This document shows, piece after piece, positions 23,652-52,480 of a stretch of 64,000 nt of DNA. The stretch comes from a virus (Duplodnaviria; Caudoviricetes). The translations under genes and the position numbers were made by a program. The DNA lies in IMG/VR virus record IMGVR_UViG_3300027804_000069, positions 1,353-65,352 of that record, one strand, 5' to 3'. The notes under the pieces were generated by a model that did no database searches, had not been told where the DNA came from, and saw only the letters and a program-made list of their open reading frames with translations. Each line of letters begins with the position of its first letter. The stretch's first letter is position 1.

Positions 23652-23753
23652 TTATTTTTGTCCGCTTTTCCAACTTTTAGAAACTACATAAACTGTAACA
23701 CCTAGTGCTACAAGTCCTAAAGCATACGCTAGTAAATTTTTTCCGTTTTTCAT
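23652..23753 (-). CDS. 33-aa membrane micropeptide MKNGKNLLAYALGLVALGVTVYVVSKSWKSGQK
   Basis: Not in the track; fills the gap exactly; paralogue of 32361..32468. Confidence 0.8.
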   Translation of the reverse strand: MKNGKNLLAYALGLVALGVTVYVVSKSWKSGQK

Positions 23754-23755
23754 TT

Positions 23756-24160
23756 TTATGGATTGAATTGTGATAAAATACTTCTTTGAGGTCTGTTACT
23801 TACTGCACATCTGCATCTGTTTTGAATACCTTTACTATCTTGCATAGCAGCATCTGCATTCGCAAACAATGGAGCACCTACACCTCTGTCATAGATATTA
23901 GGTACTAAATTTTGAGCACTCATATAAATAGGAGGCTTTACACCACTTCCTAAAGCATTAATTGTAACAGGGTTTGCTGTTAAACCACTTGGTGTCGGTA
24001 GTGGAGCAGGATTTGGGTCAGGTATACCAACTATGATTGGTGGATTTTGATTTTTCAAATCAGAAACCTTTACATCTTTTTTCTTGCTGTAGTATCTTAA
24101 TAAAAGGATAGTACCTACTACCCCTGCACCAAACCATAATATTTTGTTATCAGTTGCCAT
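23756..24160 (-). CDS. N-anchored Pro-rich membrane protein
   Basis: ILWFGAGVVGTILLL; PxP tract. Confidence 0.75.
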   Translation of the reverse strand: MATDNKILWFGAGVVGTILLLRYYSKKKDVKVSDLKNQNPPIIVGIPDPNPAPLPTPSGLTANPVTINALGSGVKPPIYMSAQNLVPNIYDRGVGAPLFANADAAMQDSKGIQNRCRCAVSNRPQRSILSQFNP

Positions 24161-24162
24161 GA

Positions 24163-24894
24163 TTATTTCTTTTTTGCTTTTACAATCAATACGATAGCAG
24201 TAATAGCAACAAGCACACCTGCACCGATAATGATGTAAGTTGTAACACTTGTCTTTTCACTAGGAGGTAAGTCTGCATTCTTTTTTAATTCATCAGCCTT
24301 TTCTTGTAAAGCTAATGCTTGAGCATTTATATTATTAGCACTAGATTGAGTTCTACTACTAATTTTTTGTAGTCCTATTTGAATACCCGCATTAATTGTG
24401 TCTTCATTACTAAGTGATTTACCAATACTAGCTAATAAACGACCAACTCCCGTCTTTCCTTCAGGATTGTCTGCAGTTACTCTCGCTTTTTTCTTGGCAG
24501 CAGCAGCTTGAGCAGCAGCAGCTTTAGAAGCAGCTGAAGCAGCTTGAGCAGCAGGGTCTTTCTTTTTACCTAGACCAAAAATATTATAAAATTCGTCCTC
24601 GCCTGTGAATTGAAAATCATCAATTCCTGTAAATCCGAAATCTTGAGAAGTACCTACAAAAGATAAAGTTTCACCTGCTTCTTTTACCTTACTTGTAAGG
24701 AAAGTAGATAACTCATTTTTGAAGTTTGGGCTCTTTGCAGAAGCCATTAATACAGCAATAGTTACTTCTTTATCAGAAGCATTGTTACCGATTACAACTC
24801 CATTTCTTTTGAGTAGTCTTTCAAGACCATTCTTATCTGTAACGAGTGCGTAAGCTAATGCTTCCTCTGTTACTTGTAGTGCACTTACTGCCAT
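24163..24894 (-). CDS. C-anchored structural protein with tandem FTG-acidic motifs
   Basis: SFVGTSQDFGFTGIDDFQFTGEDEFYNIFG; C-terminal TM. Confidence 0.8.
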   Translation of the reverse strand: MAVSALQVTEEALAYALVTDKNGLERLLKRNGVVIGNNASDKEVTIAVLMASAKSPNFKNELSTFLTSKVKEAGETLSFVGTSQDFGFTGIDDFQFTGEDEFYNIFGLGKKKDPAAQAASAASKAAAAQAAAAKKKARVTADNPEGKTGVGRLLASIGKSLSNEDTINAGIQIGLQKISSRTQSSANNINAQALALQEKADELKKNADLPPSEKTSVTTYIIIGAGVLVAITAIVLIVKAKKK

Positions 24895-24909
24895 TTTATT
24901 TTATTTTAA

Positions 24910-25212
24910 TTATTTTTTATTTACATAGTACGTTACACCATAAATAGCAAGTGTAATACCAATTACCCATGCCCATTTTTGTCCTTTAGACATTCTTACA
25001 CCAAATAAGCCTTCAACTTCGCTTACAGGATTGCTTGGGTCATTTGGCAAAGGTGCACCTTCCATAGTTTCTTTATTCTGTGGTGGTGGTGAAAATTTGC
25101 TTTCATGCCTTTTCATGCAATCTTCAAAACTGCTATATTTACTTTTATCGTAACCATAGTTACAATATTGAAATTTTGCTTCCGCTGCATTTTGTGGTGC
25201 TCGTAGTGCCAT
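24910..25212 (-). CDS. small C-anchored membrane protein
   Basis: WAWVIGITLAIYGVTYYVNKK. Confidence 0.75.
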   Translation of the reverse strand: MALRAPQNAAEAKFQYCNYGYDKSKYSSFEDCMKRHESKFSPPPQNKETMEGAPLPNDPSNPVSEVEGLFGVRMSKGQKWAWVIGITLAIYGVTYYVNKK

Positions 25213-25217
25213 TGTAA

Positions 25218-25649
25218 TTATTTTTTAGTTGTTATGATTGCAAATGCAATTAAGATAGCACCTGCAAACATTAACATACCTGTTTCCGAAGTTAATTTTT
25301 TATTATCAGCCACTTGTTGAGCTGCTTGTACTTGAAGCTGACCTGAAAAGTTCATGTAAGATTCAAGAATATTTTTATTTGGGTTTGATGCAGAGCAAGT
25401 ACACCCTTCAGGCTTTTTGCCGAATTTCTTTTCGTAGTAATCCATGAACAAGTCTTTGTCAGGATTGTTTTCGATTATTTCCATTAAAATAGGTTCTCCC
25501 TCGATGGAAACAAGTTGCTGTAAAACAGATGAAAGAGGTTGGTCTCTGTCAAATTCGTAGCCATGTCTATGTGCCAACGATTTCACGAAATACGGATTCG
25601 CTGCAGCGGTGTATGCGTATATATTTACATTACTCGACATGATATGCAA
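25218..25649 (-). CDS. C-anchored membrane protein (start possibly 25640)
   Basis: MLMFAGAILIAFAIITTKK. Confidence 0.75.
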   Translation of the reverse strand: MHIMSSNVNIYAYTAAANPYFVKSLAHRHGYEFDRDQPLSSVLQQLVSIEGEPILMEIIENNPDKDLFMDYYEKKFGKKPEGCTCSASNPNKNILESYMNFSGQLQVQAAQQVADNKKLTSETGMLMFAGAILIAFAIITTKK

Positions 25650-25664
25650 TTTAATGAATTTAAA

Positions 25665-25714
25665 GTAAAAAAGGGCGAAGCTGATATAAAATCTGCTTCA
25701 GCCCTTTCTTTTTT
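25665..25714 (-). terminator. rho-independent terminator after the capsid candidate
   Basis: Minus strand AAGGGCTGAAGC...GCTTCGCCCTT followed by a T run. Confidence 0.8.
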
Positions 25715-25731
25715 ATTTTGTACCGCCTGAA

Positions 25732-26430
25732 TTAACGAGCAGCAGGTCTGATAATCTTTGGACTACCATATTGCTTAGATACAGGGTTTCCACCTAAACC
25801 ACGAGCAATATTGATGTTATCAGAAGGGTAGAATTGGAACTGAACACTTGAACTTGCGAACATAGTGAAAGTCAATTTAGTGAAGCCATCGATACGGAAA
25901 GGTTGTTTCAATTCGATAACACCACTTTGGTTCTGATAAGGGTCAATTACAGGAGTCAAGATTTTAACAGCTTGGTTACCGTTAGCGTCTTGAGTAGTTA
26001 ATGTAATTGGTTGTAACACTTGACTTGTTGTACCATTTACAGAGCTAATCAAAGTAGAACCGATTGTGAACGGAGATACACTTGATTGGTTAAGTAAGTT
26101 GTAATAAGTTGTGTTAGAAAGGTTTGATGTAATAGTTACGTTGTTTACAGTTAAAGAACCTGCAGAGAAACCTGCATTGTTCAAATAAACATACGCACCG
26201 AATACATCTACAGAAACTGCAGCGTTTGAAGCGTTAGAAACTGTGATGATGTAAGGCTGAGATTTCATCATTCCCGCTGCTGCCATAGGAGCTGCTGCAG
26301 GAGCTGCGTCTGCACCGAAGAAATCGTCAGCACCTGTGAAATAAGTTTCATCTGCGAAACCATCCACACCAATAAACTGCTCGTTCACTGAACGATTAGC
26401 TTGTTGTAAGTACTTTTGAATACTAGACAT
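25732..26430 (-). CDS. putative major capsid protein (jelly-roll-like, 232 aa)
   Basis: Beta-rich, no TM; 13 of 14 Phe codons are TTC; own terminator; next to the packaging ATPase. The fold is inferred, not demonstrated. Confidence 0.65.
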   Translation of the reverse strand: MSSIQKYLQQANRSVNEQFIGVDGFADETYFTGADDFFGADAAPAAAPMAAAGMMKSQPYIITVSNASNAAVSVDVFGAYVYLNNAGFSAGSLTVNNVTITSNLSNTTYYNLLNQSSVSPFTIGSTLISSVNGTTSQVLQPITLTTQDANGNQAVKILTPVIDPYQNQSGVIELKQPFRIDGFTKLTFTMFASSSVQFQFYPSDNINIARGLGGNPVSKQYGSPKIIRPAAR

Positions 26431-26487
26431 TGTTAATTAATTTATTTTTTTTAAAATTTTGTTTTGTTGTAGTTAGTTCCTTATGAA

Positions 26488-26595
26488 TTAAGCACCAATC
26501 TTAGCTTTGTCAAGCAACGGCTTAACTGCTAACATATAAAGGGCTACACCCGCTGTTACTACTAAAACTTTACCTGCAAGAGATTTGAAGTCCAT
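26488..26595 (-). CDS. 35-aa membrane micropeptide MDFKSLAGKVLVVTAGVALYMLAVKPLLDKAKIGA
   Basis: Not in the track; first gene of the capsid transcript; single TM. Confidence 0.8.
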   Translation of the reverse strand: MDFKSLAGKVLVVTAGVALYMLAVKPLLDKAKIGA

Positions 26596-26718
26596 TTTTT
26601 TCTAATTTAAGTTTTTAAGAATGATTGTGTATCAACTGAATACAGATTCAAATGACACACCAAACCTAACCACTTAATTTTAATTGATAATTATATTTAA
26701 TTACTTTGTTTACTACTA

Positions 26719-26776
26719 TTGTTTGTAGCAAAAGGCACTTATTTGATTTTTTATACTTGATTTGTTTGTAGCAAAA
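26719..26776. promoter_or_regulatory. 15-bp direct repeat TTGTTTGTAGCAAAA (26719-26733, 26762-26776) upstream of the capsid operon
   Basis: Exact repeat, 43-bp period, containing the TTTG-N3-CAAA dyad. Confidence 0.65.
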
Positions 26777-26810
26777 AAAATCCCCAATAGAATTAACTAT
26801 CAGGGATAAA
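26773..26810 (-). terminator. terminator after the ATPase gene
   Basis: Minus strand ATCCCTGATAG-loop-CTATTGGGGAT then T8. Confidence 0.7.
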
Positions 26811-26830
26811 ATCAAAAACAAAAAAGGGAA

Positions 26831-27652
26831 CTATCCAATATATTGAGCAAGTAGCCTTCTTTTAACTTCGGCTCTTGCGGTTGTGTCTGTGTATTTTTTC
26901 TTATTTTTCTCGTCTTTTAGAACCATGTAAGGATTGGTTAGTGCTCTAAAGTTTTCGCTGATGTATTGGTCTACAGCATCTTCAATCATTTCTTGGCTAT
27001 AGTTACCTCTGATATTTGATTCGTCCATGTCTACATAGCAGTAAAACCGCTTGTTTCCTGAATCGTATTGGTTATTCACCATGATTTCAGCAATACGCAT
27101 ATACTCGAACTTATCAGGGAATTTGTTTTTGTGTCTTTCAACTGATTCCACGTTTTTATGGAATCTTAATTGATTCAAATTTCCCCAAAGTTTAGTAACA
27201 ATTCTACCAATAGACTGATAAGACAGAATAATATCTAAACCAACGTGACGATTTGTTGCAATAGCACCCACCAAATCTGATGGCATATGGTCTCCAATAA
27301 ATTTAGAAGGGTCTTCAATTACCAAAAGACCATTTTTGAAAGTGCTTAAAACGTAAAATAGAGCCTGAGCCCATTCGTCCAAAGTCATTCTAGTTCCATT
27401 TGGATGAAAAGGTCTTATACGTCTTACTTCTACATGGGGGTGAACTGTAAATAAGCCTACGTCATTTAGTGACAAAGCTCTAATACCAAAGACACCATAC
27501 TCGTCATTTACGTCCATGACAAGTGCCTTACGACCTTTTATACCATGATAAGGGTCTCCTTCAACATATTTGTTTATGGTAATCATGTGAGCCCATGTCT
27601 TCCCCACACCTTTTTTACCAACTGCAGCCATTAATAAAGGTTCTCTTCCCAT
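26831..27652 (-). CDS. FtsK/HerA-superfamily genome packaging ATPase (A32/P9-like)
   Basis: Walker A GKKGVGKT, Walker B LLVIED, Arg-finger/sensor TNRHVGLDIILSYQ; no TM. Confidence 0.85.
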   Translation of the reverse strand: MGREPLLMAAVGKKGVGKTWAHMITINKYVEGDPYHGIKGRKALVMDVNDEYGVFGIRALSLNDVGLFTVHPHVEVRRIRPFHPNGTRMTLDEWAQALFYVLSTFKNGLLVIEDPSKFIGDHMPSDLVGAIATNRHVGLDIILSYQSIGRIVTKLWGNLNQLRFHKNVESVERHKNKFPDKFEYMRIAEIMVNNQYDSGNKRFYCYVDMDESNIRGNYSQEMIEDAVDQYISENFRALTNPYMVLKDEKNKKKYTDTTARAEVKRRLLAQYIG

Positions 27653-27653
27653 T

Positions 27654-27941
27654 TTAATTTTTAATTTCTTTTAGTGCCATTTCTATTCTATACGAATCGT
27701 AAACTTTTGAAAATGATATTCTCCTGATTGATATGTCACACATAGCAAAGTCATACTCTATTTTCATAAAGTTTTCCTTCTTTGTAAATACGGGAATTAC
27801 TTTACAATCTTCTACACAAATAATAAAATCGTCATCGTTTTCAACAGGGAAATAAATCTTATCTGATTCCTTATCAAACACACGAATAACACTCATTATT
27901 CTTTGCTTAAATTCAATCCATTCAGGGCTTTTAATTTTCAT
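27654..27941 (-). CDS. hypothetical protein
   Basis: Operon context. Confidence 0.55.
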   Translation of the reverse strand: MKIKSPEWIEFKQRIMSVIRVFDKESDKIYFPVENDDDFIICVEDCKVIPVFTKKENFMKIEYDFAMCDISIRRISFSKVYDSYRIEMALKEIKN

Positions 27942-27942
27942 C

Positions 27943-29076
27943 TTAATCTAGTCCTTGCATTTGTGGATTTGGTTTCTCTTTTCCCTCTCTGTCCGTCTCT
28001 CTCAAAATGATTGCTTCAGCTATTTCGCTTTCGTCAATATTGTTGATATAGTCTTTTGGTCTACGTCCTCTTTTACCGTTTCCTGTCTTTCTTTGTTTCA
28101 TAGCTTCTTGATATGAACTATTGCCACCATTAGCTTTTGCTGCGTTTTCAGACCAAATCTTTTCCTTTTGTCTTTGTTCCATCAGCTTTGCCTTCCCTGT
28201 CGTAGGAACTTGTTTTTCTACTACAATAGAGTTTACTACTGCCTCATTTGAATTGAAGTTATCAAAATCTTCAGTTGCTTGGTATGTAGGTGTAGGAGTT
28301 GGTTTTGGCTCTGTAGGCTTTGGTGCACTTGGTTTTGGCTGTGATACAACTCCGCTAGATTTGATGGCTGCAGTATTTTCTACTAAAGCGTTAATTAAAT
28401 CGTTTGCGGTTGATTTCATTTGATAAATCAAAACACTCTTTACAGCAATATCCTTACCAAAAGCAAAGAGTACATACTGCTCGTCAGTCATACCTGCACC
28501 TCTTTTTTCAAGGATTCTTACAAGTGGTGGCTTAACGTCTTTTTTGAACTCTCTACTTACTACTAAAGTATCTTTTGTCTGATTGTTAAACTCTTCAATA
28601 AATTCACCTGCAGAAATAGTAGAACCATCTGCCGTTGGCACTTGAATAGACAAATCTAATTCACCCTCAGCTTGAAGTTTTTTAATTTTCTTTTCAGGAA
28701 TTTTTAGGAACATATTTCCCCATGAGTTGATTTGCTCATAGGTATCTAAAATGATTGTTGCTAAATGTTCTGCACCCGCTTTCTTTTCAGCATCACTTGC
28801 TTGATTCATGGCAGGGTTTACAGGAGCTGAATCGTTTTTACGACCACCGCCACCGCCACCATCACCCCCTAACATATCGTAAGGGTTTTCTCTTGTATTT
28901 ATAGACTGAGGCTGAAATGAAGGCTCAGGAATAATAGTTGAAAGTTGGTCTTGAGAAACAAAGCCCGTTGGCTGACTGTATGGTTTATCATTTACGTTGT
29001 CACTAAAGGGCATAAACTCCCTTTTAGGCTCTGTGAATGTTTGCTGATTTTGTTGCTGTTCAGTCTGATTTTCCAT
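27943..29076 (-). CDS. hypothetical protein upstream of the ATPase, possible packaging accessory
   Basis: 377 aa with low-complexity ends; role is inference from position. Confidence 0.65.
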   Translation of the reverse strand: MENQTEQQQNQQTFTEPKREFMPFSDNVNDKPYSQPTGFVSQDQLSTIIPEPSFQPQSINTRENPYDMLGGDGGGGGGRKNDSAPVNPAMNQASDAEKKAGAEHLATIILDTYEQINSWGNMFLKIPEKKIKKLQAEGELDLSIQVPTADGSTISAGEFIEEFNNQTKDTLVVSREFKKDVKPPLVRILEKRGAGMTDEQYVLFAFGKDIAVKSVLIYQMKSTANDLINALVENTAAIKSSGVVSQPKPSAPKPTEPKPTPTPTYQATEDFDNFNSNEAVVNSIVVEKQVPTTGKAKLMEQRQKEKIWSENAAKANGGNSSYQEAMKQRKTGNGKRGRRPKDYINNIDESEIAEAIILRETDREGKEKPNPQMQGLD

Positions 29077-29081
29077 GATGG

Positions 29082-29501
29082 TTATTTATTTAATAGTGTT
29101 TTGTCTAGTTTGTCTTTTATTTTGATATAAGGTAAATCCGATTTATATTTTGGGTTCAAAGATTCAACAAGTATTTTGTACTTGCTGATATTTGTCTTAT
29201 GCCTAGATATGAATACAGAATCACTTATTTCTCTTATTGTCATATTTTGGTAAAGGTAATAAACACAAAAGCCAACAGCAAACTTGTTGTCCCCCCTAGC
29301 GTATTTAGAATACAGCAAAGAGTCCACTTCCATACCGAAGGCTTCAGAAACGGAGTTTAATACCAAGTTTATGTAAGGGTTATCAAAAGAGGTTACTTTA
29401 CCATCTTCTATTGTAAGAGCAGCCATTGTCTTGTCATAGCCATTCTTTTTGAAGTAACTGACAAATGTGTCAAGAGCTGTGAGTGTATTATCAAGAGTCA
29501 T
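29082..29501 (-). CDS. DnaA C-terminal-like helix-turn-helix protein
   Basis: VLNSVSEAFGMEVDSLL...CVYYLYQNMTIREIS...RHKTNIS resembles the DnaA domain IV pattern. Confidence 0.55.
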   Translation of the reverse strand: MTLDNTLTALDTFVSYFKKNGYDKTMAALTIEDGKVTSFDNPYINLVLNSVSEAFGMEVDSLLYSKYARGDNKFAVGFCVYYLYQNMTIREISDSVFISRHKTNISKYKILVESLNPKYKSDLPYIKIKDKLDKTLLNK

Positions 29502-29518
29502 GGTTATTTTTTATGTTA

Positions 29519-29526
29519 CAAATGTA
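29519..29526 (-). promoter_or_regulatory. Bacteroidota-type -7 promoter box TACATTTG
   Basis: Perfect TAnnTTTG, 17 nt upstream of ATG 29501. Confidence 0.6.
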
Positions 29527-29543
29527 TTTATTTTATATCGAAA

Positions 29544-29945
29544 TTACCAACCTGATATTATATTTTTTAATTTACTTCCATTTTCCTTAAACCACTCTTT
29601 GCCTATCACTCGCAGCTTTACATCAGGGTGATATTTAGCCATTCTTTTTATCTTGGTAGCTGACTTACTATCCATGTAACCTTTAACCTCAATCCACTCA
29701 TCGTTTCCACTAGGGAAAACAACCCGAAAATCAGGTTTGTAGTTATTTGTTCCCCTTTTTATACCTTCAAAATAAAAGGTTTTTGGCTCATGTTCCCACT
29801 CTACAATGTGTTTATGCTTTTTCATAAACTCCAAATACAAAGCATATCTATATTCCCACCTACTTCTATAAAAGTTTCTTTTACCACCAATTTCAGCCCA
29901 TTCTTGTTTCCAAGTGGACTTCCCATCTTTTAAGTGTATTTGCAT
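29544..29945 (-). CDS. PD-(D/E)XK nuclease (DUF1064-like)
   Basis: YRSRWE, YKPDF, IEVKGY. Confidence 0.8.
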   Translation of the reverse strand: MQIHLKDGKSTWKQEWAEIGGKRNFYRSRWEYRYALYLEFMKKHKHIVEWEHEPKTFYFEGIKRGTNNYKPDFRVVFPSGNDEWIEVKGYMDSKSATKIKRMAKYHPDVKLRVIGKEWFKENGSKLKNIISGW

Positions 29946-30586
29946 TATAGTCCGTATCTAGCTTTGAAGTCTCTGTCTTTTACGATTGTCTCCACACAAA
30001 AAAGTGAAAAATCGTTGTCTGAAGGATAGTGAAGACCCAAATAAATTCTTGAGTATTCAATGTCCTTTGCCAAAGAATCAAAGTAGCCGAATTTTTCAGG
30101 AAAATGATTTCCTAATACATGACAAATCAAAGCTACCTGAAATGTATGTCCTGCAGGATATGAAGGTGTTTCAGCCGAAGTTGAGCTGAAAGGGAATAGT
30201 TTTAGTTTGTAGTGCTGTGCTAGTTGGTAAGGTCTAGGACGCTGAAAATGATACTTTAATTTCAGAATAACAGGTAGGCTTTCGTCAATAATCTTATCTA
30301 TTAATTCAGCACCTTTATCCCCTAAATCTTGACTTAAAATAACACTAGCAAAGATTCTTTCAATAGATGCGTCATACGACTTATATCTTTTAAGGGTCTC
30401 TTCGTCTGCCTTTACATCACCAATAAAATCAACCAATTCGTTTAGCTCCTCTCTTGTAGCTTTAGAGCTATTTAAAGGGAAACCAAATTTGATTAATTGA
30501 GGCAAATGTTTATCTAATGGGCTTTCAGCCTCTAAATAAGGTAATTGCCTTTGCGTTGGATTGCCGTATGTTATTGAATCAAGCAT
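29945..30586 (-). CDS. PAP2/vanadium-haloperoxidase-family phosphatase
   Basis: KYHFQRPRP, PSYPAGH, SRIYLGLHYPSD. Confidence 0.85.
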   Translation of the reverse strand: MLDSITYGNPTQRQLPYLEAESPLDKHLPQLIKFGFPLNSSKATREELNELVDFIGDVKADEETLKRYKSYDASIERIFASVILSQDLGDKGAELIDKIIDESLPVILKLKYHFQRPRPYQLAQHYKLKLFPFSSTSAETPSYPAGHTFQVALICHVLGNHFPEKFGYFDSLAKDIEYSRIYLGLHYPSDNDFSLFCVETIVKDRDFKARYGL

Positions 30587-30619
30587 AATTGTTTATGGTT
30601 ATTTTGTGTTTTTATATTT

Positions 30620-31054
30620 TTATATTTTCTCCCAAGTTGTTGTGAACCCTTGTCCAAGAGGTGCTCCTGTTTGTTTTCTACGATATTCGTAAGTGCCATA
30701 TTTTGTAGTTAGCCTATCACCTACATTACCTCCTCTTATATTTCCGTATTTTTGTTTTAGAGCTTCAAAAAGAACAATTTGTTCAATAATTTTTTGGTCT
30801 TGTTCAGGTGTATTAATTCCTACTAGTGGCATTCCATATTTGTCTCTACGAATTGGATTCTTACCTTCATCTACAACTCTTGTATCATTTACAAGTGGAT
30901 TGATACCTGCTCCAATGCCCCCACCGCCTCTTGCGACTACATCTTCGTATGTCTGTCCACTTGCAGTTTGGGCTTTTTTACCCATTCTAGTATAAACGTA
31001 GACCACTAATGCAGCTACACCCAAGCCAACTAATATCTTTTTATTTTTTGTCAT
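30620..31054 (-). CDS. N-anchored membrane protein
   Basis: KILVGLGVAALVVYVY. Confidence 0.7.
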   Translation of the reverse strand: MTKNKKILVGLGVAALVVYVYTRMGKKAQTASGQTYEDVVARGGGGIGAGINPLVNDTRVVDEGKNPIRRDKYGMPLVGINTPEQDQKIIEQIVLFEALKQKYGNIRGGNVGDRLTTKYGTYEYRRKQTGAPLGQGFTTTWEKI

Positions 31055-31267
31055 CTATTTATTTTTTAAATAATTATTGCCGTTATATACCAAAGTAGTA
31101 AGTCCTAAAACGAATAAACCAACCCTGATAGGATTGGATAAACTCTTTTGACTAGCTACATAAAAGCAAAATGGTGCAACTACAAAGACATCAACAAGCC
31201 TTATCTGTTGTACAGACAAAATTGGGCTATAAGTTATTGTAGTTTCTTTTTTTGTCATTTTAGCCAA
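31055..31267 (-). CDS. small two-TM protein
   Basis: IRLVDVFVVAPF...LGLTTLVYNG. Confidence 0.7.
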   Translation of the reverse strand: MAKMTKKETTITYSPILSVQQIRLVDVFVVAPFCFYVASQKSLSNPIRVGLFVLGLTTLVYNGNNYLKNK

Positions 31268-31652
31268 GTCTCATTACAGGTCTTTTACCTCTAGAACCTG
31301 ATGCGTTTACTTCTGCAGTCTTTTTAGCAGCAAGTTGTGCACTCTCTAACTTACCGATTCTCTCGATTACGTCATTGTAAGCTGTTTTCTCCATAGCCAT
31401 CATAAGCCTGAAGTATTGTATTGCATAAATACCTACACCTACTATCAAAGCAGATACGGACACCTCTACAATATTAATATCAGCAAACCAACCTTTGATA
31501 CCACCGCTACTTGCTGTTTCACCACCTTCTGCCATAGCAGGAGCAGGTGCTGCAGGTGCGGGTGCTGCCATAGGCATAGGAGCTGCTGCGGGTGCAGGAG
31601 CAGGTGTGCTTACGGGTGCAGGAGGTGCACTATTTTCTATTGTTGTATTCAT
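31260..31652 (-). CDS. Pro/Ala-rich membrane protein with MAEGG motif
   Basis: PAPAPA tract, PAMAEGGE, central TM. Confidence 0.75.
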   Translation of the reverse strand: MNTTIENSAPPAPVSTPAPAPAAAPMPMAAPAPAAPAPAMAEGGETASSGGIKGWFADINIVEVSVSALIVGVGIYAIQYFRLMMAMEKTAYNDVIERIGKLESAQLAAKKTAEVNASGSRGKRPVMRLG

Positions 31653-31653
31653 T

Positions 31654-32217
31654 TTAATCTTTTTTCTTTTTGGCTACTAAATAGATGCCTAATGCAACAA
31701 GCAATAACCACCAATAACTTTTCTTTTTTGGTTCAGGTGCAGCCTCTTCATCACCGCCACCGCCTCCACCACCGCCAATGGGTCTAATGCCTAAATTGGT
31801 TGCAGGTAAAACAGGGATAACAGGGATTGCAGGTACGACTACGTTTGTATCAGGTTTTGGTGCTGCAGTAGTAGTGCTTGTAGTAGTACTTGTTGTAGTA
31901 CTATCTTCAGGCTTATTGCAATACCTTTGAAACATATCATAAGCAGCCATTGTCTGCTCAGGAGTTGCCGAACCACCGCCATTAGTAGAAATATAAGTAG
32001 CTAAATTGGCACAAAAGTTAGGAGAATCAAGAGTAGGCAAAGGCATACCTGAACCACCACTAATTGTATCTTTAGTAGTATCATTAGGGTTCGTAGGAGC
32101 ACCATCTTGATTTACAAACTCAGCCTTTCCCGTATTAATATCATACGAGTGGTTTCGAGGTTTTACGAATTTATCTTCGCCCTCGAATATAATGACCTTT
32201 TCCTTCTTTTTTGCCAT
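31654..32217 (-). CDS. C-anchored protein with Thr-rich mucin-like stretch
   Basis: STTTSTTTSTTT; YWWLLLVALGIYLVAKKKKD. Confidence 0.75.
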   Translation of the reverse strand: MAKKKEKVIIFEGEDKFVKPRNHSYDINTGKAEFVNQDGAPTNPNDTTKDTISGGSGMPLPTLDSPNFCANLATYISTNGGGSATPEQTMAAYDMFQRYCNKPEDSTTTSTTTSTTTAAPKPDTNVVVPAIPVIPVLPATNLGIRPIGGGGGGGGDEEAAPEPKKKSYWWLLLVALGIYLVAKKKKD

Positions 32218-32222
32218 AACAC

Positions 32223-32342
32223 TTATTTTAGTTGGGCTGCAGCTCTTTTAATAGCATCAGTCCATTTTTCACCTTGTTTGCGGATTTTTTTAGCCAATTT
32301 AGCAATATCTGCTACGTTGATTTTCTTTTTAGCTGTTGCCAT
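32223..32342 (-). CDS. 39-aa basic peptide MATAKKKINVADIAKLAKKIRKQGEKWTDAIKRAAAQLK
   Basis: Not in the track; fills the gap; Lys/Arg-rich amphipathic helix. Confidence 0.75.
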   Translation of the reverse strand: MATAKKKINVADIAKLAKKIRKQGEKWTDAIKRAAAQLK

Positions 32343-32360
32343 CTTTATATTTTTTTGTGA

Positions 32361-32468
32361 TTATTGACCACTTTTCCAAGCAGAACTGATAACTCTAACG
32401 GTTACATAAAGCACTAATAAACTAAGACCAATGCCTACTGCTGTTGATACGATTCCTTTCTTTTCCAT
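32361..32468 (-). CDS. 35-aa membrane micropeptide MEKKGIVSTAVGIGLSLLVLYVTVRVISSAWKSGQ
   Basis: Not in the track; first gene after a promoter; shares WKSGQ with 23652..23753. Confidence 0.8.
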   Translation of the reverse strand: MEKKGIVSTAVGIGLSLLVLYVTVRVISSAWKSGQ

Positions 32469-32497
32469 GATTTTTATTTTTTTGATTTAAAAATAAG

Positions 32498-32511
32498 TTG
32501 TATAAAATTAG
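32498..32511 (-). promoter_or_regulatory. promoter-like 14-mer CTAATTTTATACAA (copy 1)
   Basis: Identical copy at 52302-52315; both precede long minus-strand operons. Confidence 0.6.
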
Positions 32512-32552
32512 CAATTATTTCTAATTGCCACTATTTTTTTTATTTATTTGGA

Positions 32553-33080
32553 CTATCCTTCGTCTGCAAAGCCTTTTACGACTAAATTAGACTTGGTGTC
32601 CTCAAATGCGTTATTCCAAAAGTTCTTTTCGTCTCCTGTGAATGATTTGTCCTGAAATACATCAAAACCTGCACTTTTAGAAACACCCCATACACCACTT
32701 ACAATACCCTCTTCACTACCTGTAAATGAATGCTGTTCGTCCTTGTTTCTAAGTATTTTGTGAACTAACCCTCTTTTAAGGATTTCAATTCTGTCAAAGA
32801 AACGCTGTCCATTTGGTTGAATAGACGTACCGAACTTAATACCCCAATCGTAAGCTATTAGGTAACTAGATTCACCTCTTAAAACAAAAGGCTTACCATT
32901 TATGGTTAAGTTAGCTATCCCCTTTTCATAATCAACACTATCTACCTTAATTTCAGGTGACCATACGTTGTTTTTGTAAAAGCTATAAAGACCAAAAACG
33001 GCTACAATACCTGTTGATATTGCTGCTATCTTCAGAAATACGCTATTTGCCTTGCTCAATCTACTTGTTATGTCTGCCAT
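32553..33080 (-). CDS. N-anchored membrane protein with two SFTG motifs (start revised to ATG 33080)
   Basis: The longer track start overlaps the endolysin; TM IAAISTGIVAVFGLY. Confidence 0.65.
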   Translation of the reverse strand: MADITSRLSKANSVFLKIAAISTGIVAVFGLYSFYKNNVWSPEIKVDSVDYEKGIANLTINGKPFVLRGESSYLIAYDWGIKFGTSIQPNGQRFFDRIEILKRGLVHKILRNKDEQHSFTGSEEGIVSGVWGVSKSAGFDVFQDKSFTGDEKNFWNNAFEDTKSNLVVKGFADEG

Positions 33081-33081
33081 A

Positions 33082-33681
33082 CTATGCCATTGTTGAATGA
33101 AGTGAATCAAAATGTTTTTGCCTATCAGCCAAACCAATAGTGCCTCCATTTACCCTTTTGGTAACTGCAAGTACCACTTCGTGACCATGACCTTTGTCAC
33201 AAATATCCCACAATTTATTCTTATTAAAGAAAAAAGCTGCACTCATAAGCGGATATTTACTTGCCACTAAATCAGGGTCTGCTAAAATATCGTCCTCTAC
33301 AAACTTATCAAAGTCTGTGTAATTAAACTTGCCTGTGGTTTGCAAAAATCCACGTCCTCTGAATCTAAAACCATCACCACTAGCCTCATCACCATTACCC
33401 ATACGGCTGCCATATACTCGATTTGCAATCTTTTCAGGCTGTCTTGCATACTTTGCAGCTAGTTCAGCAGTTGGGAAGTATTTAGGGAAAATCTTACGAA
33501 GTCCATCTGCAGAGTAATTTAGGTTTTCTCTTACAAACTTGAAATTTCCACTTTCGTGAGCACATTGAGCCAAGAAGTGACTAAGCCTCAAAGGGTTTGA
33601 AACTCCAAACTTTTCCATAATTGCAGGTATTTCATCTAATACTGCTTGAGGTAATTTTGATTGTAATTTTGAAATATCCAT
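33082..33681 (-). CDS. GH19-family endolysin
   Basis: FLAQCAHESGNF, RGRGFLQTTGKFNY, TKRVNGG. Confidence 0.9.
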   Translation of the reverse strand: MDISKLQSKLPQAVLDEIPAIMEKFGVSNPLRLSHFLAQCAHESGNFKFVRENLNYSADGLRKIFPKYFPTAELAAKYARQPEKIANRVYGSRMGNGDEASGDGFRFRGRGFLQTTGKFNYTDFDKFVEDDILADPDLVASKYPLMSAAFFFNKNKLWDICDKGHGHEVVLAVTKRVNGGTIGLADRQKHFDSLHSTMA

Positions 33682-33685
33682 ATCG

Positions 33686-34120
33686 TTATTTTATTGTTAT
33701 GTCTTTATTTATACCAACGGAGTAAGATGCAAAAGAATCTCCGAAAGCACTTTGTACCCCATAGCTGAGGACAAATGAATATTCTTTTTTCAAAGGTATT
33801 GTATAATTAAAATCATACTCCATTGTTATGTCTTTGTGATGATAAAAATACCCTATGGCTGCACTTACGCTAAATTTATCATAGATTGGAAATGTTGCCA
33901 TTAATTCCTGATAAAAGTCTTTACTATCATAAGTCCACCAACCGCTATTTATACCAACCGCTGTTTTACCAAAATATCTACCTACTTCTACTGTTGCTCC
34001 TAACAAGTTTTTAGTATCATTTAAAGGTGTATTGAATGCTACGTTTGGAGCAGCCATTACATAGTACTGACCTTTAGCTTGTAAGGTAAAAAATAAAAGC
34101 ATTATTACAATCAGTCTCAT
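33686..34120 (-). CDS. small outer-membrane beta-barrel-like protein
   Basis: Sec signal ending AKG|Q; amphipathic aromatic beta strands. Confidence 0.6.
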   Translation of the reverse strand: MRLIVIMLLFFTLQAKGQYYVMAAPNVAFNTPLNDTKNLLGATVEVGRYFGKTAVGINSGWWTYDSKDFYQELMATFPIYDKFSVSAAIGYFYHHKDITMEYDFNYTIPLKKEYSFVLSYGVQSAFGDSFASYSVGINKDITIK

Positions 34121-34776
34121 TTCTTTTTCTTTTTAACAGCAGCTTTTTTTACAGGCTTTTTAGCAGTTTTCTTTACTGATTTTTTGCCACTAGTCTGTCT
34201 ATTTTTAAAAATATCATATATAATAGAACCCAAAAGAGCAATAGCAAGTGCAATAGCCCCTATCATAAAATTAGAAAACTTATTTAGGAGAACTATCATC
34301 CCTTTCGTCTCTTTAGCACCTATCGTTGTCTGTATGTCTATTAAATCATTTACATATTCTAAAACAGGATAAATTTTTTCATCCATTATTTTAGCCTCTT
34401 CATCAGTAACTATTTCATCCTCAATTATTTTTTCCAAATAAGCATCGGCAGAATCAATGTATTTTTGGGCTTTATCACTTACTTCTTTCTCTTCGCCTGT
34501 TTGATATGTCTTTAAGTAAGCAGCCCACATTGTATCTGTAATAGCCTTTTCTTTTTGAATTGCTACTAAATCAATTTTGCCTCCTTTAATTACTTTAATT
34601 TGGTCTTGTATGGTAGAACCATAGTAATCAAACTTCCTACTTAAATATGGTTGTGGAACTAGCCTATCCTCATATACACTTGTTGCTGTTTCTCTAATGG
34701 TACTTTCCACATACTTACCAAACCCTGAAATAGCTAAAATAATTGCAGTTAATATGATTAATAGGATATTTTTCAT
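34117..34776 (-). CDS. four-helix-bundle sensor (4HB_MCP_1-like) two-TM protein with basic tail
   Basis: TM-SVYEDRLVP...W-x-x-Y-x-x-T...EE-TM; KKSVKKTAKK tail. Confidence 0.6.
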   Translation of the reverse strand: MKNILLIILTAIILAISGFGKYVESTIRETATSVYEDRLVPQPYLSRKFDYYGSTIQDQIKVIKGGKIDLVAIQKEKAITDTMWAAYLKTYQTGEEKEVSDKAQKYIDSADAYLEKIIEDEIVTDEEAKIMDEKIYPVLEYVNDLIDIQTTIGAKETKGMIVLLNKFSNFMIGAIALAIALLGSIIYDIFKNRQTSGKKSVKKTAKKPVKKAAVKKKKK

Positions 34777-35108
34777 CGTTTCTTTCTTGGTTTTGTTTGT
34801 TGTTTTTTCATAAATGACATTGGGTCAGAAGCAAATTGTCCACTTATCTTTAATACTCCTTGTATTATTTCAGGACTATTTAAGCCAACTAAACCATATG
34901 CAACAGCTTTATACATTGAGTCCATAGTAAATTGCTCCATGACAAACCACGCAATTAGAGAGGCTATCATAGAACTTATCATTTTTTTTACAACCTCTCC
35001 TCCTGATTGTTGTTCATTTGTGGTTACGAGTCTTGCTACCATCCCTGCTGCACCAATCATTAAAACAACCCAACCGCCATCCAAAAAGTTTTTTATAAAG
35101 TTTTCCAA
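34773..35108 (-). CDS. holin-like multi-TM protein
   Basis: Three hydrophobic segments, basic C-terminus, upstream of the endolysin. Confidence 0.55.
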   Translation of the reverse strand: MENFIKNFLDGGWVVLMIGAAGMVARLVTTNEQQSGGEVVKKMISSMIASLIAWFVMEQFTMDSMYKAVAYGLVGLNSPEIIQGVLKISGQFASDPMSFMKKQQTKPRKKR

Positions 35109-35116
35109 CCATTTAT

Positions 35117-36058: not shown

Positions 36059-36059
36059 A

Positions 36060-37924: not shown

Positions 37925-38071
37925 TTAAGCGTCTTTGCTATCGTCTTCTACTTCAATAGTAAAAGAGCCTTCTTTAATCTTTGTGGTGTTCTTTTTTGCC
38001 ACTAATTTGGTATAGCCATAATAACCTAACCCTAGAATAGCAAGTCCGATAACGATGTTCTTTAAATTCAT
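37925..38071 (-). CDS. 48-aa N-anchored membrane peptide (start revised)
   Basis: MNLKNIVIGLAILGLGYYGY; the longer track start overlaps the next gene. Confidence 0.65.
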   Translation of the reverse strand: MNLKNIVIGLAILGLGYYGYTKLVAKKNTTKIKEGSFTIEVEDDSKDA

Positions 38072-43561: not shown

Positions 43562-43598
43562 TGTGGGTAAAATTTGTATGTAAATTTAGTAATATTTC

Positions 43599-46103: not shown

Positions 46104-46105
46104 GA

Positions 46106-49100: not shown

Positions 49101-52100
49101 CACTCTCTTATTTTCTTTTCTCTTTCCTTCCTTACTGATTCAATTAAATTTTCAGTTGGACTTACAATTAAACCCCCATTTTCATATTTAGGGTATTTTT
49201 TTAACACCTCACCACTATATGTTAATCTGTCCTCGTAATAGTCTGTATCACCATACACATTGTTATGTATTACTTTACTAGGGTCAAGTTCTCCTATTAC
49301 CTTTAACCCACTCGTTTCTAATAACCTTTCACCATCTGCACCTCTACTATAATTACCATAAGATACATGACCTTTTATAGGGTTTCCTTCAATTAAATAA
49401 ATTGGCAATTTATCCCCTTGCCTTACCCAATAACTTTCTTCTAGGTCATTACCAAAATCTTGAAAACCTTTTGCGTCTTCAAAGTCAATAAAAACAAATT
49501 TACTATTTGGGCTATACCTTGCAGTAAAAACAGATACACCCTTCTCTTTAGTGTTTGTTATATAGTTATATGACACTAAATAATTATCTAATCGTTTTCT
49601 TGGTAACCCAATCCTAACATATATTTCAGGTAAATCTTCAAATTTTTGTTTGCCTTTATTAGTTTTTGTGTATTTTTTTTCTAAATAATCATTACCTGCA
49701 TAAATTACTTCACCACCATTTTCATACATTTTCGGGTTGCTTAGGTAGTATATCGCAACTTCTTTGGCTGCTTTTAGTGTTTTGTAGCCACCAATAGTCT
49801 TTTGTGGCTTACCATCATGCTGCATATTTAATATCCACAATTTGTCAAGTTTGCTATAATGTATACTTGCATCTTTGTATTTGTATTCTGTATCTTCAAA
49901 AGATTCATCTATACCCAAATATTCTTTTTTTATTCTCTTAAAATCATCTGATGCACCACCATCTTCCATAAATCCTATTGGCTCAGGGTCATAAAATGTT
50001 CTGTTGTCAAACCCGCATTTGTGACAAATGTATTTATCAGATTCGTCAGAATCAGAGGTATTCCAATGCCACCCACAATTAACGCAAGTGATTTCTTGAC
50101 CTACAGAACCGCCATCAGCCATACTATCTGAGCTGAAGTTTTGCATGATTTCGTAGTAGCCCTTAATCTTTGTACCATCTGCAAGGGTTGCATTTTCTAA
50201 ATGAGTTATATATCTATAGTGAAAAGAAACTATGTTATACCCCGCTGCAGGTATGGCTTCAGTAACAAAATCAAAATAACTGCCATCTGCAAAATTAAAT
50301 CTGTAACGTCCCTCAAATCCTTTTTTACCAACTTTTAGACTTTCTCTACTTACATCAGATATTGGCTTACTAACTCTAGGGAAGTTATCTAGCACAGCCT
50401 TCAAAAATCTGTATTTCAAAGACTCAGCATAGTCTAAAATGATTTTATCCATTATAGGCTTATAATCAGATTTTAGCTCTAAGTCTTTATAGAAATTTTC
50501 AATTATTGGATAACCTCTATAGTCCTTAGTTTTAACTACTATTGGCTGACTTTCAATAAAAATGTCTCTCCAAAATACTATTGCTGTTTGTAACTTCTCT
50601 ACGTTTACCCCACCTTCTTTTTGACTTAGCTCAATATATTCTTTTATCAAACCTTCAAATCTCTCAGTTTCTCTTTCAATTACAATCTTTTCAACGTCCT
50701 TAAAGTCTTCAAAAAGCTGCTTATATAGTGATTTGAATACATCTTGATTCATTTTTGGTATCTTGGAAAGTATTTCATCCATTTGCTTTTTAGCCTCTTT
50801 TTTGAGTAGACTTTCCTGACTAAATACCTTTTTTGGAACTTTTACACCTTGCTCTTCTGCTATCTTGATTACTTCGTCTTCTGTGATTTCACCATTTTCA
50901 ATCATTTTTTTGTAGGTGTCATCTTCGATAGCTCTTCTAATTTCAGACTTATTTGACTTTTTGTAATCTGAGTTAAGTCCATCAAATATTACTTTTTCAT
51001 CAAAAAACTTATTCAAATCTTTGAAAAAAGCTATATTTTTTTCTAGTATATCTTTAGGTGTTGGTGCGGGAATAGTATAGTCATCGTATTTACGAAACTT
51101 TCTTTCATTCCAATTCTCTATTAATTGCTTTTCATCATTACTTCGGAAATAATATCCTGTTTTCTTACCATCTAAACCTCTACTAAGTACCTGCTCAAAT
51201 GTAACTTTGTAAAATCCACTATACGATGTTAATGACAAATATTTATCATTTTTTCTAGCGAATTTCTCATATTCTTTTAGAAGTGGAACAACCCTGTCTT
51301 CATACTCTGATTTAGTCATTAAGTATGCAGGTTTAGGGGTATCGTCACTCTTAGCAGCCTCTAGCTTTTGTGCGTCTATAATCTTTTGTTTTTCCCTCTT
51401 TATCTTATTTTCAAGGTCTCTTGCCTTTTTTCTTTCCTTTTCAGCAGCAGCTCCTCTATTGTATTTTTCATAATCTTCTTTAGCTCTCTCTCGTCCGAAA
51501 TCGGAGTCATCATAAACTACATAACCATAATATTCTTTGGGCATTTTGTTGTACCTAAGTCTATATCCCAAAAGTCCTTCTTTTGTCAAATCTTCAGATT
51601 CTTCCCTACCTAAATCATTTGTGGATTTATAAACACCAACAATCGTATAAGCCTCTTTGCTTTTCTTGGTTTCGCCACCATCGGCTAGTTTTGAATCAGA
51701 TAACATTTTTTCGTATTGTTTTTTTGAAACTAAATTATATCCCCACCTTTTAGCCATATCCTTTACTACACTTAACCTTTTATCACCATCAACATTATAG
51801 TAATTATTGTCACCATCTTTAGTAATTAACCAATAAAAACCACCTTCCCATTTTTCAATAAAGGCAAACTTTTTTACGTCACCCCCATCAGCCATAAGGT
51901 CATCGTCCTGAACGTATGCAGCTTTAACTTGCTGACCTGCTTTCTTTTTAAGGAATTTATTTACTCTAGCAAAGCCCCATGCTTGTCTGCTATTTGGTGC
52001 TCCACCTGTAATTGTAGGTCTGTGAGAAGTAGAATAAGCACCCATACCCCTACGCATAACTGCTTTTAGGGTTGCAACGCTTACCTTATTTTTTGGGTGA

Positions 52101-52267
52101 CTTTCGTTGTAATCTTTTGCCTTTTGGCTTAAAGTAGCTAGTATACTTTCATTTAGCTCAATCCCTTTGGCTGAGGCTTTAGAACTAGCACTTCCGACCT
52201 TGTTTTTGTCAGAGCCATAAATTCTGTCCTTTTTAGGAGCAGGGGTTTTTGATAGGCTTTTCGGCAT
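46106..52267 (-). CDS. giant modular polyvalent protein, about 19 xxxGG linkers; includes Zn ribbon, GNAT-like and DUF5824/DUF5661-like modules
   Basis: 2053 aa; CVNC...CHKC; YYEKFGF; RRGMGAY...WGFARVNKF; GMKTESEH...HLDE. Confidence 0.8.
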   Translation of the reverse strand: MPKSLSKTPAPKKDRIYGSDKNKVGSASSKASAKGIELNESILATLSQKAKDYNESHPKNKVSVATLKAVMRRGMGAYSTSHRPTITGGAPNSRQAWGFARVNKFLKKKAGQQVKAAYVQDDDLMADGGDVKKFAFIEKWEGGFYWLITKDGDNNYYNVDGDKRLSVVKDMAKRWGYNLVSKKQYEKMLSDSKLADGGETKKSKEAYTIVGVYKSTNDLGREESEDLTKEGLLGYRLRYNKMPKEYYGYVVYDDSDFGRERAKEDYEKYNRGAAAEKERKKARDLENKIKREKQKIIDAQKLEAAKSDDTPKPAYLMTKSEYEDRVVPLLKEYEKFARKNDKYLSLTSYSGFYKVTFEQVLSRGLDGKKTGYYFRSNDEKQLIENWNERKFRKYDDYTIPAPTPKDILEKNIAFFKDLNKFFDEKVIFDGLNSDYKKSNKSEIRRAIEDDTYKKMIENGEITEDEVIKIAEEQGVKVPKKVFSQESLLKKEAKKQMDEILSKIPKMNQDVFKSLYKQLFEDFKDVEKIVIERETERFEGLIKEYIELSQKEGGVNVEKLQTAIVFWRDIFIESQPIVVKTKDYRGYPIIENFYKDLELKSDYKPIMDKIILDYAESLKYRFLKAVLDNFPRVSKPISDVSRESLKVGKKGFEGRYRFNFADGSYFDFVTEAIPAAGYNIVSFHYRYITHLENATLADGTKIKGYYEIMQNFSSDSMADGGSVGQEITCVNCGWHWNTSDSDESDKYICHKCGFDNRTFYDPEPIGFMEDGGASDDFKRIKKEYLGIDESFEDTEYKYKDASIHYSKLDKLWILNMQHDGKPQKTIGGYKTLKAAKEVAIYYLSNPKMYENGGEVIYAGNDYLEKKYTKTNKGKQKFEDLPEIYVRIGLPRKRLDNYLVSYNYITNTKEKGVSVFTARYSPNSKFVFIDFEDAKGFQDFGNDLEESYWVRQGDKLPIYLIEGNPIKGHVSYGNYSRGADGERLLETSGLKVIGELDPSKVIHNNVYGDTDYYEDRLTYSGEVLKKYPKYENGGLIVSPTENLIESVRKEREKKIREWYKLGYKVVVARNDGYSYEKESERDVEFIDSRNPSQRKVIDIIKNNPNLNKIYFNGTIKVGNKVGEELEIADDFSVVLWKKDSSFFKEGLKFEFVQDNGKYINTIVNKNDTITYKDRKDDGNYIYFNQLDKKYGTISESRSKKDILKEEFDNQEAVFIKDNYANGGTLAIPSQHDLIKMELGLELFKPSKTIEQIAKEKDVPLDYAEEQLRKGMKTESEHSDNPIVQETIALQHLDEMIDYYEKLEYMESQNKMAKGDLLDNSLFNKALIYKSIKPIRQANEIIERLDYMESQNKMAQGGVTEFYKEYQDWYKNGVSDKMTIMVSVPNEFSKMSSEDNHVILDVFEKRDESVDGKEKLKELLELANKNEIDVYLEPIPRHNHIKDSSKKEKITREYLISYYEKFGFELLPNGFMVRKHKNNKMEKGGYYKAGGEINPDDKNVKDYFSHGSGNVGGVLVGKRHSEGGIKAVNKSTNQPLEMEGGEVVITRNAVSDDTKREFEGKMMTNREILSKINESGGGVSFADGGDIPESIYTSGKEYKYGGKMMKDHEIVSSCGCKHSMAEGGITGDLHSLTDKLLAQKIEIFIKKVMPIKFYYIDEGSNSLIIGLDENYTTGMAEKLHKEATSSAEFFDADSVNMEYNQNTGQAQYSIKLKKVAKFGKGGEMAEGGMLKDANKLEIGDKIKISEGYQGTFIYEVLSGARQGVRPSEIVYQVKIIDSTEPNDYFHIGKVFYKMFTKRLGRFSKVNVLEKGGYMADGGETEKFKIQRAKSYDGRELIKIYEYIPSEEGYINVMTLNDNYKAKAIKNNYDLSKDEDVIKFYQKVDKGYLAEGGETDYQTELKSHLFPKIEVEVEVEVEPVMEEMMVNEHYITADDLGLSDGMPMLAVGTIVYSSGGNDQWEVVSFSDDGVNLVNKPKSPLQSKMEDKHLTFDELIKYFKDKSISIKNISTERELEPAIALVKNKLPQKSFAVGGFIDGDEDEDAKIMQSQFGKSNFK

Positions 52268-52301
52268 TGAAAAAACTTTTTTTGAAAAATAAGTAAAAAA
52301 T

Positions 52302-52327
52302 TTGTATAAAATTAGTACTTATATTTG
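52302..52327. promoter_or_regulatory. back-to-back promoters: CTAATTTTATACAA (-, 52302-52315) and TATATTTG (+, 52320-52327)
   Basis: Intergenic between divergent genes; the + box is a perfect TAnnTTTG. Confidence 0.6.
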
Positions 52328-52363
52328 TATCTCAATATTTTTTAACCCCAAAATTCAAAAATC

Positions 52364-52480
52364 ATGTTTCAAGGATTTTTCGACATTAAAAGCGACAAGT
52401 GGCTTGGTGGTGTTAATGTACACAATACATTAGCTCTAATCGGCATTGGCTACCTAGTAGTTAAGGCTTGGAAAAAGTAA
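52364..52480 (+). CDS. 38-aa membrane micropeptide MFQGFFDIKSDKWLGGVNVHNTLALIGIGYLVVKAWKK
   Basis: Not in the track; own promoter and terminator; TM ending AWKK. Confidence 0.7.
   Translation: MFQGFFDIKSDKWLGGVNVHNTLALIGIGYLVVKAWKK

Follow-up and report, generated by a model that had tools for sequence, protein, structure and literature searches.

The stretch of DNA analysed here (the window) covers 64,000 of the 65,352 bases of a linear virus record in IMG/VR and carries four short open reading frames (ORFs), named below by their first coordinate, that are predicted to encode membrane micropeptides. Three of them are on the minus strand, like almost all of the genes around them: p23652 (23652..23753; 33 residues, translation MKNGKNLLAYALGLVALGVTVYVVSKSWKSGQK), which occupies a variable slot in the middle of an operon, p26488 (26488..26595; 35 residues, MDFKSLAGKVLVVTAGVALYMLAVKPLLDKAKIGA) and p32361 (32361..32468; 35 residues, MEKKGIVSTAVGIGLSLLVLYVTVRVISSAWKSGQ), the latter two each with a single predicted membrane helix. 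The fourth, p52364 (52364..52480; 38 residues, MFQGFFDIKSDKWLGGVNVHNTLALIGIGYLVVKAWKK), lies on the plus strand, divergent from the gene for a 2053-residue protein, and combines a polar N-terminal half with a short hydrophobic C-terminal tail. Translation reproduced the coordinates and C-termini quoted in the original prediction, an earlier reading of the same DNA that gave no strands. Using a Kyte-Doolittle threshold of 1.6 over 19 residues as the criterion for a hydrophobic segment, values of 1.77-1.99 were obtained for three of the four peptides (1.77 for p26488), in support of the earlier description of membrane micropeptides of 33-38 residues; each has one hydrophobic segment.

Coding status and families of the micropeptides

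Fourteen related loci were retrieved via the neighbouring ATPase gene and formed groups with 98%, ~69% and 44% ATPase identity. Position, frame and length of the ORFs were kept in relatives at 44-70% ATPase identity. Substitutions counted in each ORF frame by the Nei-Gojobori method showed an excess of synonymous changes: the proportions of synonymous (pS) and non-synonymous (pN) differences were 0.87 and 0.16 for p26488 (window versus locus L012) and 0.61-0.72 and 0.19-0.30 for p52364 (versus L071-L074), p32361 had 8 synonymous and 2 non-synonymous differences from its counterpart in L003, and 3 of the 4 differences found in p23652 were synonymous. The conservation of reading frames that the original prediction had set as a test was therefore found. 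The share of A in the 18 nucleotides (nt) upstream of the start was 0.50-0.72 for the four ORFs, compared with 0.55 +/- 0.13 for ORFs of at least 100 residues and 0.32 +/- 0.12 for 179 small control ORFs. The exact peptides were already present on public contigs (p23652 on 18, p32361 on 35, p52364 on 44 and p26488 on 183), the longest of which reach 74-87 kb; the ORFs had been described as hidden, and this holds only for the gene track consulted at the time. Since they are conserved in relatives, display a synonymous excess, have A-rich start contexts, stand among tightly packed genes and are called as genes in public data, the four ORFs are very probably genuine coding genes for membrane peptides. 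Proteins of this size are hard to validate and are labelled 'hypothetical protein' by automated annotation; here, comparison among relatives provided the argument that the four are real.

The original prediction had treated the four peptides as a single family, and this was upheld for one pair. The local alignment of p23652 with p32361 scored 64, a value reached by none of 2000 shuffles (21.8 +/- 4.5), which confirmed that the two are paralogues. A profile built from alignment A4 of this family, referred to here as WKSGQ, was searched against 1.84 billion representative proteins with a cut-off of E <= 1e-3. It recovered p32361 (E 2.3e-21), p23652 (E 2.8e-13) and 134 representative clusters at 50% identity, mostly 31-41 residues long, in which the tryptophan is invariant. 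p26488 was not reported by this profile and is unrelated in sequence to the other three peptides. p52364 had been joined to the WKSGQ pair through its KAWKK end. Its match to the WKSGQ hidden Markov model had an E-value of 0.63 over 14 residues only, and the tryptophan of KAWKK is replaced by methionine in three of five relatives. A single family for all four peptides was rejected on these two grounds and on pairwise scores that fell within the range of shuffled sequences. As neither p52364 nor p26488 is related to the WKSGQ pair, the four micropeptides are, as judged from their sequences, three unrelated families.

Gene neighbourhoods and expression

In all 14 related loci, p26488 (34-38 residues) directly follows the gene for a packaging ATPase candidate and sits between it and the gene for a major coat-protein candidate. 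In the window, the ATPase candidate (26831..27652, minus strand; 273 residues, with a Walker-A motif) is separated from p26488 by 235 nt, and p26488 ends 57 nt before the start of the coat candidate (25732..26430, minus strand; 232 residues, beta-rich). A terminator-like hairpin (26780..26807, minus strand), made of an 11-pair stem and the T-run TTTTTTTG, follows the ATPase gene and sets apart a unit containing p26488 and the coat candidate. The TAnnTTTG sequence is the -7 promoter consensus of Bacteroidota, and such a box (TAGGTTTG; 26661..26668, minus strand) lies 66 nt upstream of p26488. It was found at an equal distance in 9 of the 10 loci inspected, which came from the 98%, 69% and 44% groups (10 of 11 with the window). 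Between the terminator of the ATPase gene and this box, the 15-mer TTTTGCTACAAACAA occurs twice, ~45 nt apart (26730-26800, minus strand); it could be a regulator binding site.

RNA libraries were examined with window positions 23000-32999 as the test stretch, and contigs were then aligned over 11 kb; p52364 lies outside this stretch. Two freshwater metatranscriptome runs from two studies contained 59-68% of the words sampled from it. Two contigs ran from p26488 into the coat-candidate gene, covering its 5' part (X1, 26146-26580, depth 133; X2, 26146-26611, depth 79), most others had a depth of 2-12, and the highest depth was at the coat candidate; these values, which are a poor measure of expression and come from libraries that may contain DNA, give a hint that p26488 is highly expressed, and it is the one peptide of the four with any sign of the abundance proposed earlier. 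Contigs of the same kind covered p23652 fully and p32361 almost fully, without differences. The bridging contigs support p26488 as the first ORF of the unit carrying the coat-candidate gene, in line with the earlier proposal that it leads the capsid transcript.

By sequence, the ATPase candidate had no Pfam or PDB match, and neither it nor a 12-kb stretch had a match in a phage collection. Its structural model indicates a probable relationship to the B204 protein of Sulfolobus turreted icosahedral virus (STIV) or P9 of PRD1: B204 of STIV or STIV2 took the first 13 places among the Foldseek hits in the PDB, with E-values from 2e-5 to 1e-3, followed by a hit at 1e-2. The model has a predicted local distance difference test score (pLDDT) of 60, a TM-score to B204 of 0.3-0.4 and 14-18% sequence identity to it. 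Among its look-alikes in the ESM Atlas, Zot or DUF87 (HerA) domains occurred in 11-20% of members (Zot, 13-14%). A predicted complex of the ATPase with p26488 scored 0.01, a value that is evidence neither way. No protein of the block is more conserved than the coat candidate, with 82% identity where the ATPase has 69%, and it is represented by 559 clusters in public data. Its model reached a pLDDT of 48. Jelly-roll coat proteins are among the best structural matches, with Z-scores of at most 6.2 (noise level 7-8), and the ESM Atlas look-alikes of the candidate scored below 0.9.

p52364 was present in six of six records. It is identical in one close relative and has homologues in five more distant ones (E 5e-16 to 1e-4). 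Where the neighbours were checked, in the window and in three related genomes (G003, G004 and G005), it stands beside the giant-protein gene and diverges from it. The conserved part of the peptide is its polar N-terminus, with an invariant I-K...L-G-G-x-N-V-H-N, and the hydrophobic stretch spans ~12-15 residues. A TAnnTTTG box (TATATTTG; 52320..52327, plus strand) lies 37 nt upstream of the ORF and is kept at the equivalent place in all six sequences. Downstream, two terminator-like hairpins occupy 52483..52550 on the plus strand (52483-52498, and 52516-52541 followed by a T-run). Their stems, with pairing read by eye, are kept via two-sided changes such as GCTCCCC/GGGGGC versus GCTCAC/GTGAGC. 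From this layout, p52364 is apparently a one-gene unit. The element TTTTTAACCCC (52338-52348, plus strand, with equivalents in L071-L075) is conserved between the box and the p52364 start in all relatives.

A scan of the window for sigma-70-type promoters revealed no excess over shuffled sequences, and TAnnTTTG, with 85 hits of which 5 are intergenic, showed no overall enrichment, so that only the conservation of a box in relatives carries weight. Rfam and tRNA scans gave no matches. On the sequence evidence, a TAnnTTTG promoter-like box clearly precedes only p26488 and p52364. The earlier claim that such a region stands before the first gene of the unit was accordingly retained for these two. 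It is uncertain for p32361, which is preceded by an 84-nt gap with no canonical TAnnTTTG box, and it failed for p23652, which starts 2 nt past the preceding stop codon and therefore does not lie at an operon start.

Members of the WKSGQ family, which is widespread in public metagenome data, share the consensus M..K..VGxAxSLAVLYxTVxVxSKAWKxGQK. A short N-terminus containing lysine is followed by one hydrophobic helix of ~20 residues with a G-x-x-x-S pattern and then by the tryptophan in S-K-A-W-K-x-G-Q-K. The family was defined by a length of 31-41 residues, one hydrophobic helix, the invariant tryptophan within a C-terminal [SG]-[KSR]-[AG]-W-x-x-[GS]-Q-K and a significant profile match, and p32361 and p23652 were both assigned to it. 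A few members are tandemly duplicated or form fusions with a larger protein, at its N- or its C-terminal end, and the longest contigs carrying the family reach 40-88 kb. No match was found among Pfam or PHROG families. Species genomes searched with a degenerate DNA pattern of KAWKKGQK, and IMG/VR searched with one of KAWKxGQK, gave chance matches only, and a host assignment from prophages failed for this reason.

The two members in the window differ in how widely they are conserved. p32361, the more widespread one, has a counterpart of 35-37 residues in each of the 11 related loci long enough to include its position. It is directly followed by an ORF for a strongly basic, non-hydrophobic peptide of 39 residues (MATAKKKINVADIAKLAKKIRKQGEKWTDAIKRAAAQLK; 32223..32342, minus strand), which has 60-100% identity in the same 11 loci and occurs as an exact sequence on 71 public contigs. 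This is a fifth conserved micropeptide gene, absent from the earlier list. The trio of p32361, the basic peptide and the next gene is contiguous in every locus. p23652 was found in the 98% group only. Its slot holds another ORF, of 46 residues with a hydrophobic N-terminal segment, in L007 and L005 and is empty in L012 and L013; a contig from run X9, of unknown library type and from a relative of ~90-99% likeness, has 76 other letters in place of 23652-23748. Comparison of these sequences indicates that p23652 is dispensable and replaceable.

Contigs of runs X9 and X10, both from relatives of ~90-99% likeness, carry a 10-letter filler in place of positions 30612-31259 (648 bases, spanning the ORFs at 30620-31054 and 31055-31258). 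Together with the replacement at 23652-23748, this indicates cassette-like gene turnover among strains. Two loci of the 69% group (L013:13068-13983 and L007:13109-14459) contain, near the slot of p23652, arrays of 3-5 paralogous small ORFs of 39-90 residues with an MLKGKNLL-like start. These carry an N-terminal hydrophobic segment and resemble a fast-evolving repertoire of small membrane proteins. A 48-residue ORF at 37925-38071 (minus strand), with a hydrophobic N-terminal segment (MNLKNIVIGLAILGLGYYGYTKLVAKK...) and a start context of 0.83 A, is probably another small membrane protein gene.

Virion architecture and possible roles of the peptides

The virus is an uncultured freshwater virus, probably with a host in Bacteroidota. 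About 30 of the 94 ORFs of the window have a hydrophobic segment. The structural block also contains a gene for a PAP2-superfamily protein (lipid phosphate phosphatase-like; 29945..30586, minus strand), with a homologue of 46-92% identity in all relatives checked. Genomes of the lineage measure ~65-87 kb. One of them, G005 (74,101 bp), carries exact inverted terminal repeats of 653 bp (L078:1-653 and L079), which suggests that this linear genome is complete; the parts that were scanned contained no recognisable DNA polymerase. A tailless, membrane-lined architecture is the better reading of these genomes, and we consider it fairly probable.

By analogy with such viruses, the micropeptides may be components or assembly factors of the virion membrane, a reading that we put forward tentatively and to which we give nearly even chances. 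In PRD1, the membrane proteins enter the host membrane first, and a patch of this membrane is then pinched off (PMC6356626). The peptides described here would likewise insert into the host cytoplasmic membrane during infection and be taken into a virus-specific patch of membrane, from which the internal vesicle of a tailless, membrane-lined particle would form. p26488, transcribed with the coat-candidate gene from its own conserved promoter-like box, would be the positional counterpart of P20 or P22 of PRD1 or of P7 of PM2: a membrane anchor that links the bilayer with the coat or with the packaging vertex. In the WKSGQ peptides, the concentration of positive charge at the C-terminus suggests that this end lies on the cytoplasmic side of the membrane. 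The G-x-x-x-S pattern could serve helix packing, the tryptophan could be interfacial, and the W-K-x-G-Q-K end could be a docking element at the membrane surface, with lipid head groups or a partner protein as its target.

Several points weigh against this proposal. The evidence for the peptides comes from genes and RNA-library contigs. The membrane-lined architecture is itself inferred; the ATPase model is weak, and the coat model is poor, with jelly-roll matches below noise. No homology was detected by hhalign between p26488 and PRD1 P20 (probability 0.3%) or PM2 P7 (probability 0.4%, E 0.14, 10 aligned columns), and tblastn of all window proteins against PRD1 (including P20 and P22), PM2 and the membrane-containing Salisaeta phage SSIP-1 gave no match. 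As p23652 is dispensable and replaceable, this copy is less likely to have an essential structural role, and p52364 may be non-structural because its hydrophobic stretch is short and it would be expressed apart from the structural genes.

The main rival explanation accepts the peptides as real membrane proteins and gives them a non-structural action on the host membrane during infection, for example in lysis timing (holin/antiholin-like), in superinfection exclusion or as type I-like toxic peptides. For the set as a whole we regard this as possible, though less probable; for p52364 and p23652 it is the most plausible reading. The stand-alone unit of p52364 diverges from the structural genes, has a promoter-like box of host type and carries structured hairpins on its 3' side; this layout resembles that of the small toxic membrane peptides of type I toxin systems, although no antisense RNA or antitoxin was identified for it. 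The variable and replaceable slot of p23652 is accessory-gene-like, and phages of every kind commonly encode small hydrophobic accessory proteins. For p32361, a lysis role was suggested by a GH19 endolysin-like gene (33082..33681; phrog_181, E 8e-67) two genes upstream. This adjacency is not conserved: the endolysin gene lies at a distance of 2 kb in L007 and L013, and none was found upstream in L012 and L015, unlike the trio that begins with p32361, which is always contiguous. The assignment of p32361 to a lysis cassette was weakened accordingly, and the smallest holins known to us are about twice the size of these peptides. Against a non-structural action stand the fixed position of p26488 between the ATPase and coat-candidate genes in all 14 loci and its presence on common RNA-library contigs with the coat candidate.

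A second rival is a highly divergent tailed phage, whose many proteins with hydrophobic segments would be unrelated to a virion membrane. In its favour, a collagen-like fibre is present and tail-fibre families of PHROG are matched, the model does not resolve the fold of the coat candidate, and a genome of 65-87 kb is, to our knowledge, far larger than that of any membrane-lined bacterial virus. Fibre-like proteins, however, also occur as spikes on tailless viruses. A scan of ~90 kb, with 82 window proteins and 22 proteins from an extra 26 kb of an 84-kb relative, gave no match to a terminase, portal, HK97-type coat, tail tube or tape-measure family. The only match of the record to a head-closure family (29544..29945, minus strand; phrog_218, E 9e-10) was discounted, as the ORF is DUF1064-like, that is, nuclease-like (the Pfam match lies within the window and is assumed to concern the same ORF). 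The ATPase model matched B204 alone at E <= 1e-3. We therefore consider a tailed phage unlikely. Less probable still is that some or all of the ORFs are upstream or leader ORFs whose translation or RNA regulates the next gene (p26488 for the coat candidate) or conserved RNA elements that happen to be open, as the place of p26488 in the 5' leader of the coat-candidate transcript and the conserved hairpins beside p52364 might suggest, since selection in the ORF frame is purifying for the amino-acid sequence, hydrophobic profile and length persist at 44% ATPase identity despite DNA divergence, the exact p26488 peptide recurs on so many contigs, no Rfam family matches, and the fused and tandem WKSGQ forms make sense only for a protein.

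p26488 and p32361 are concrete targets for virion proteomics and for studies of how a bilayer is coupled to a capsid. The finding is modest, in that viruses of this type would be expected to encode small hydrophobic proteins and the roles proposed for them are putative.

Comparison with known viruses

The original prediction had compared the peptides with the small membrane proteins of PRD1 and PM2. The comparison is apt because the genome context fits a tailless, membrane-lined virus, and for p26488 it extends to gene order. The annotated order in PRD1 is P9 ATPase, ORFi (42 residues), P20 (42 residues), P3 coat and P22 (47 residues); in PM2 it is P9, a 134-nt gap, P7 (34 residues, structural), P2 coat, P3 and P4 (40 residues); and in the window the ATPase gene, the intergenic gap, p26488 and the coat candidate follow each other in the same manner. 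The order of ATPase, micropeptide and coat is a sequence-independent argument for membrane-lined, tailless particles in an abundant freshwater lineage.

At the packaging vertex of PRD1, the transmembrane proteins P20 and P22 form the DNA conduit and the nucleation site (PMC4267777). They resemble p26488 in their similar size and long predicted transmembrane helix and in genes that flank the coat gene after the packaging-ATPase gene. In the window, unlike in PRD1, the ATPase gene and p26488 are set apart by a terminator and a promoter-like box, and no small ORF follows its coat candidate in the way that P22 follows the PRD1 coat gene. P7 of PM2 comes very near to p26488 in size and layout: it is nearly as long as p26488, and both have a polar, lysine-containing N-terminus, a hydrophobic core and a basic amphipathic C-terminus. 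PM2 differs in its genome, a 10-kb circle compared with ~65-87 kb and with inverted terminal repeats in at least one relative; at up to ~87 kb, genomes of this lineage are several times larger than those of the membrane-lined bacterial viruses compared.

Other systems share single traits with the window. The ATPase model points to B204 of STIV and STIV2, and STIV has an internal membrane; its host is archaeal, whereas a bacterial host appears likely for the virus described here. In SSIP-1, the structural gene gp43 (L083:26863-33822) measures 6,960 bases (~2,300 residues), a size that recalls the 1526-2053-residue proteins of the window, with no sequence similarity by tblastn. Filamentous phages offer a further parallel, as the coat protein of phage Pf3 is a single-span peptide of 44 residues; such coat proteins are likewise tiny, with a short N-terminal tail outside, a hydrophobic core and an aromatic-basic C-terminus in the cytoplasm, and the Zot domains among the ESM Atlas look-alikes of the ATPase point in a similar direction. 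A genome of this size and a beta-rich coat candidate of 232 residues are incompatible with a filamentous phage.

Because no homology to P7 or P20 was found, the resemblance of p26488 to them is positional and architectural, and descent is unproven. One could nevertheless speculate, as a doubtful idea, that PRD1, PM2 and this lineage of large bacterial viruses have inherited the succession of packaging ATPase, membrane peptide and coat as one ancient module. p26488, P7 and P20 would then be divergent counterparts that nucleate a membrane-spanning packaging vertex, and the WKSGQ peptides would be a lineage-specific, abundant element docking the bilayer to the shell. If this were true, a tiny membrane peptide would be a third hallmark gene of membrane-lined viruses.

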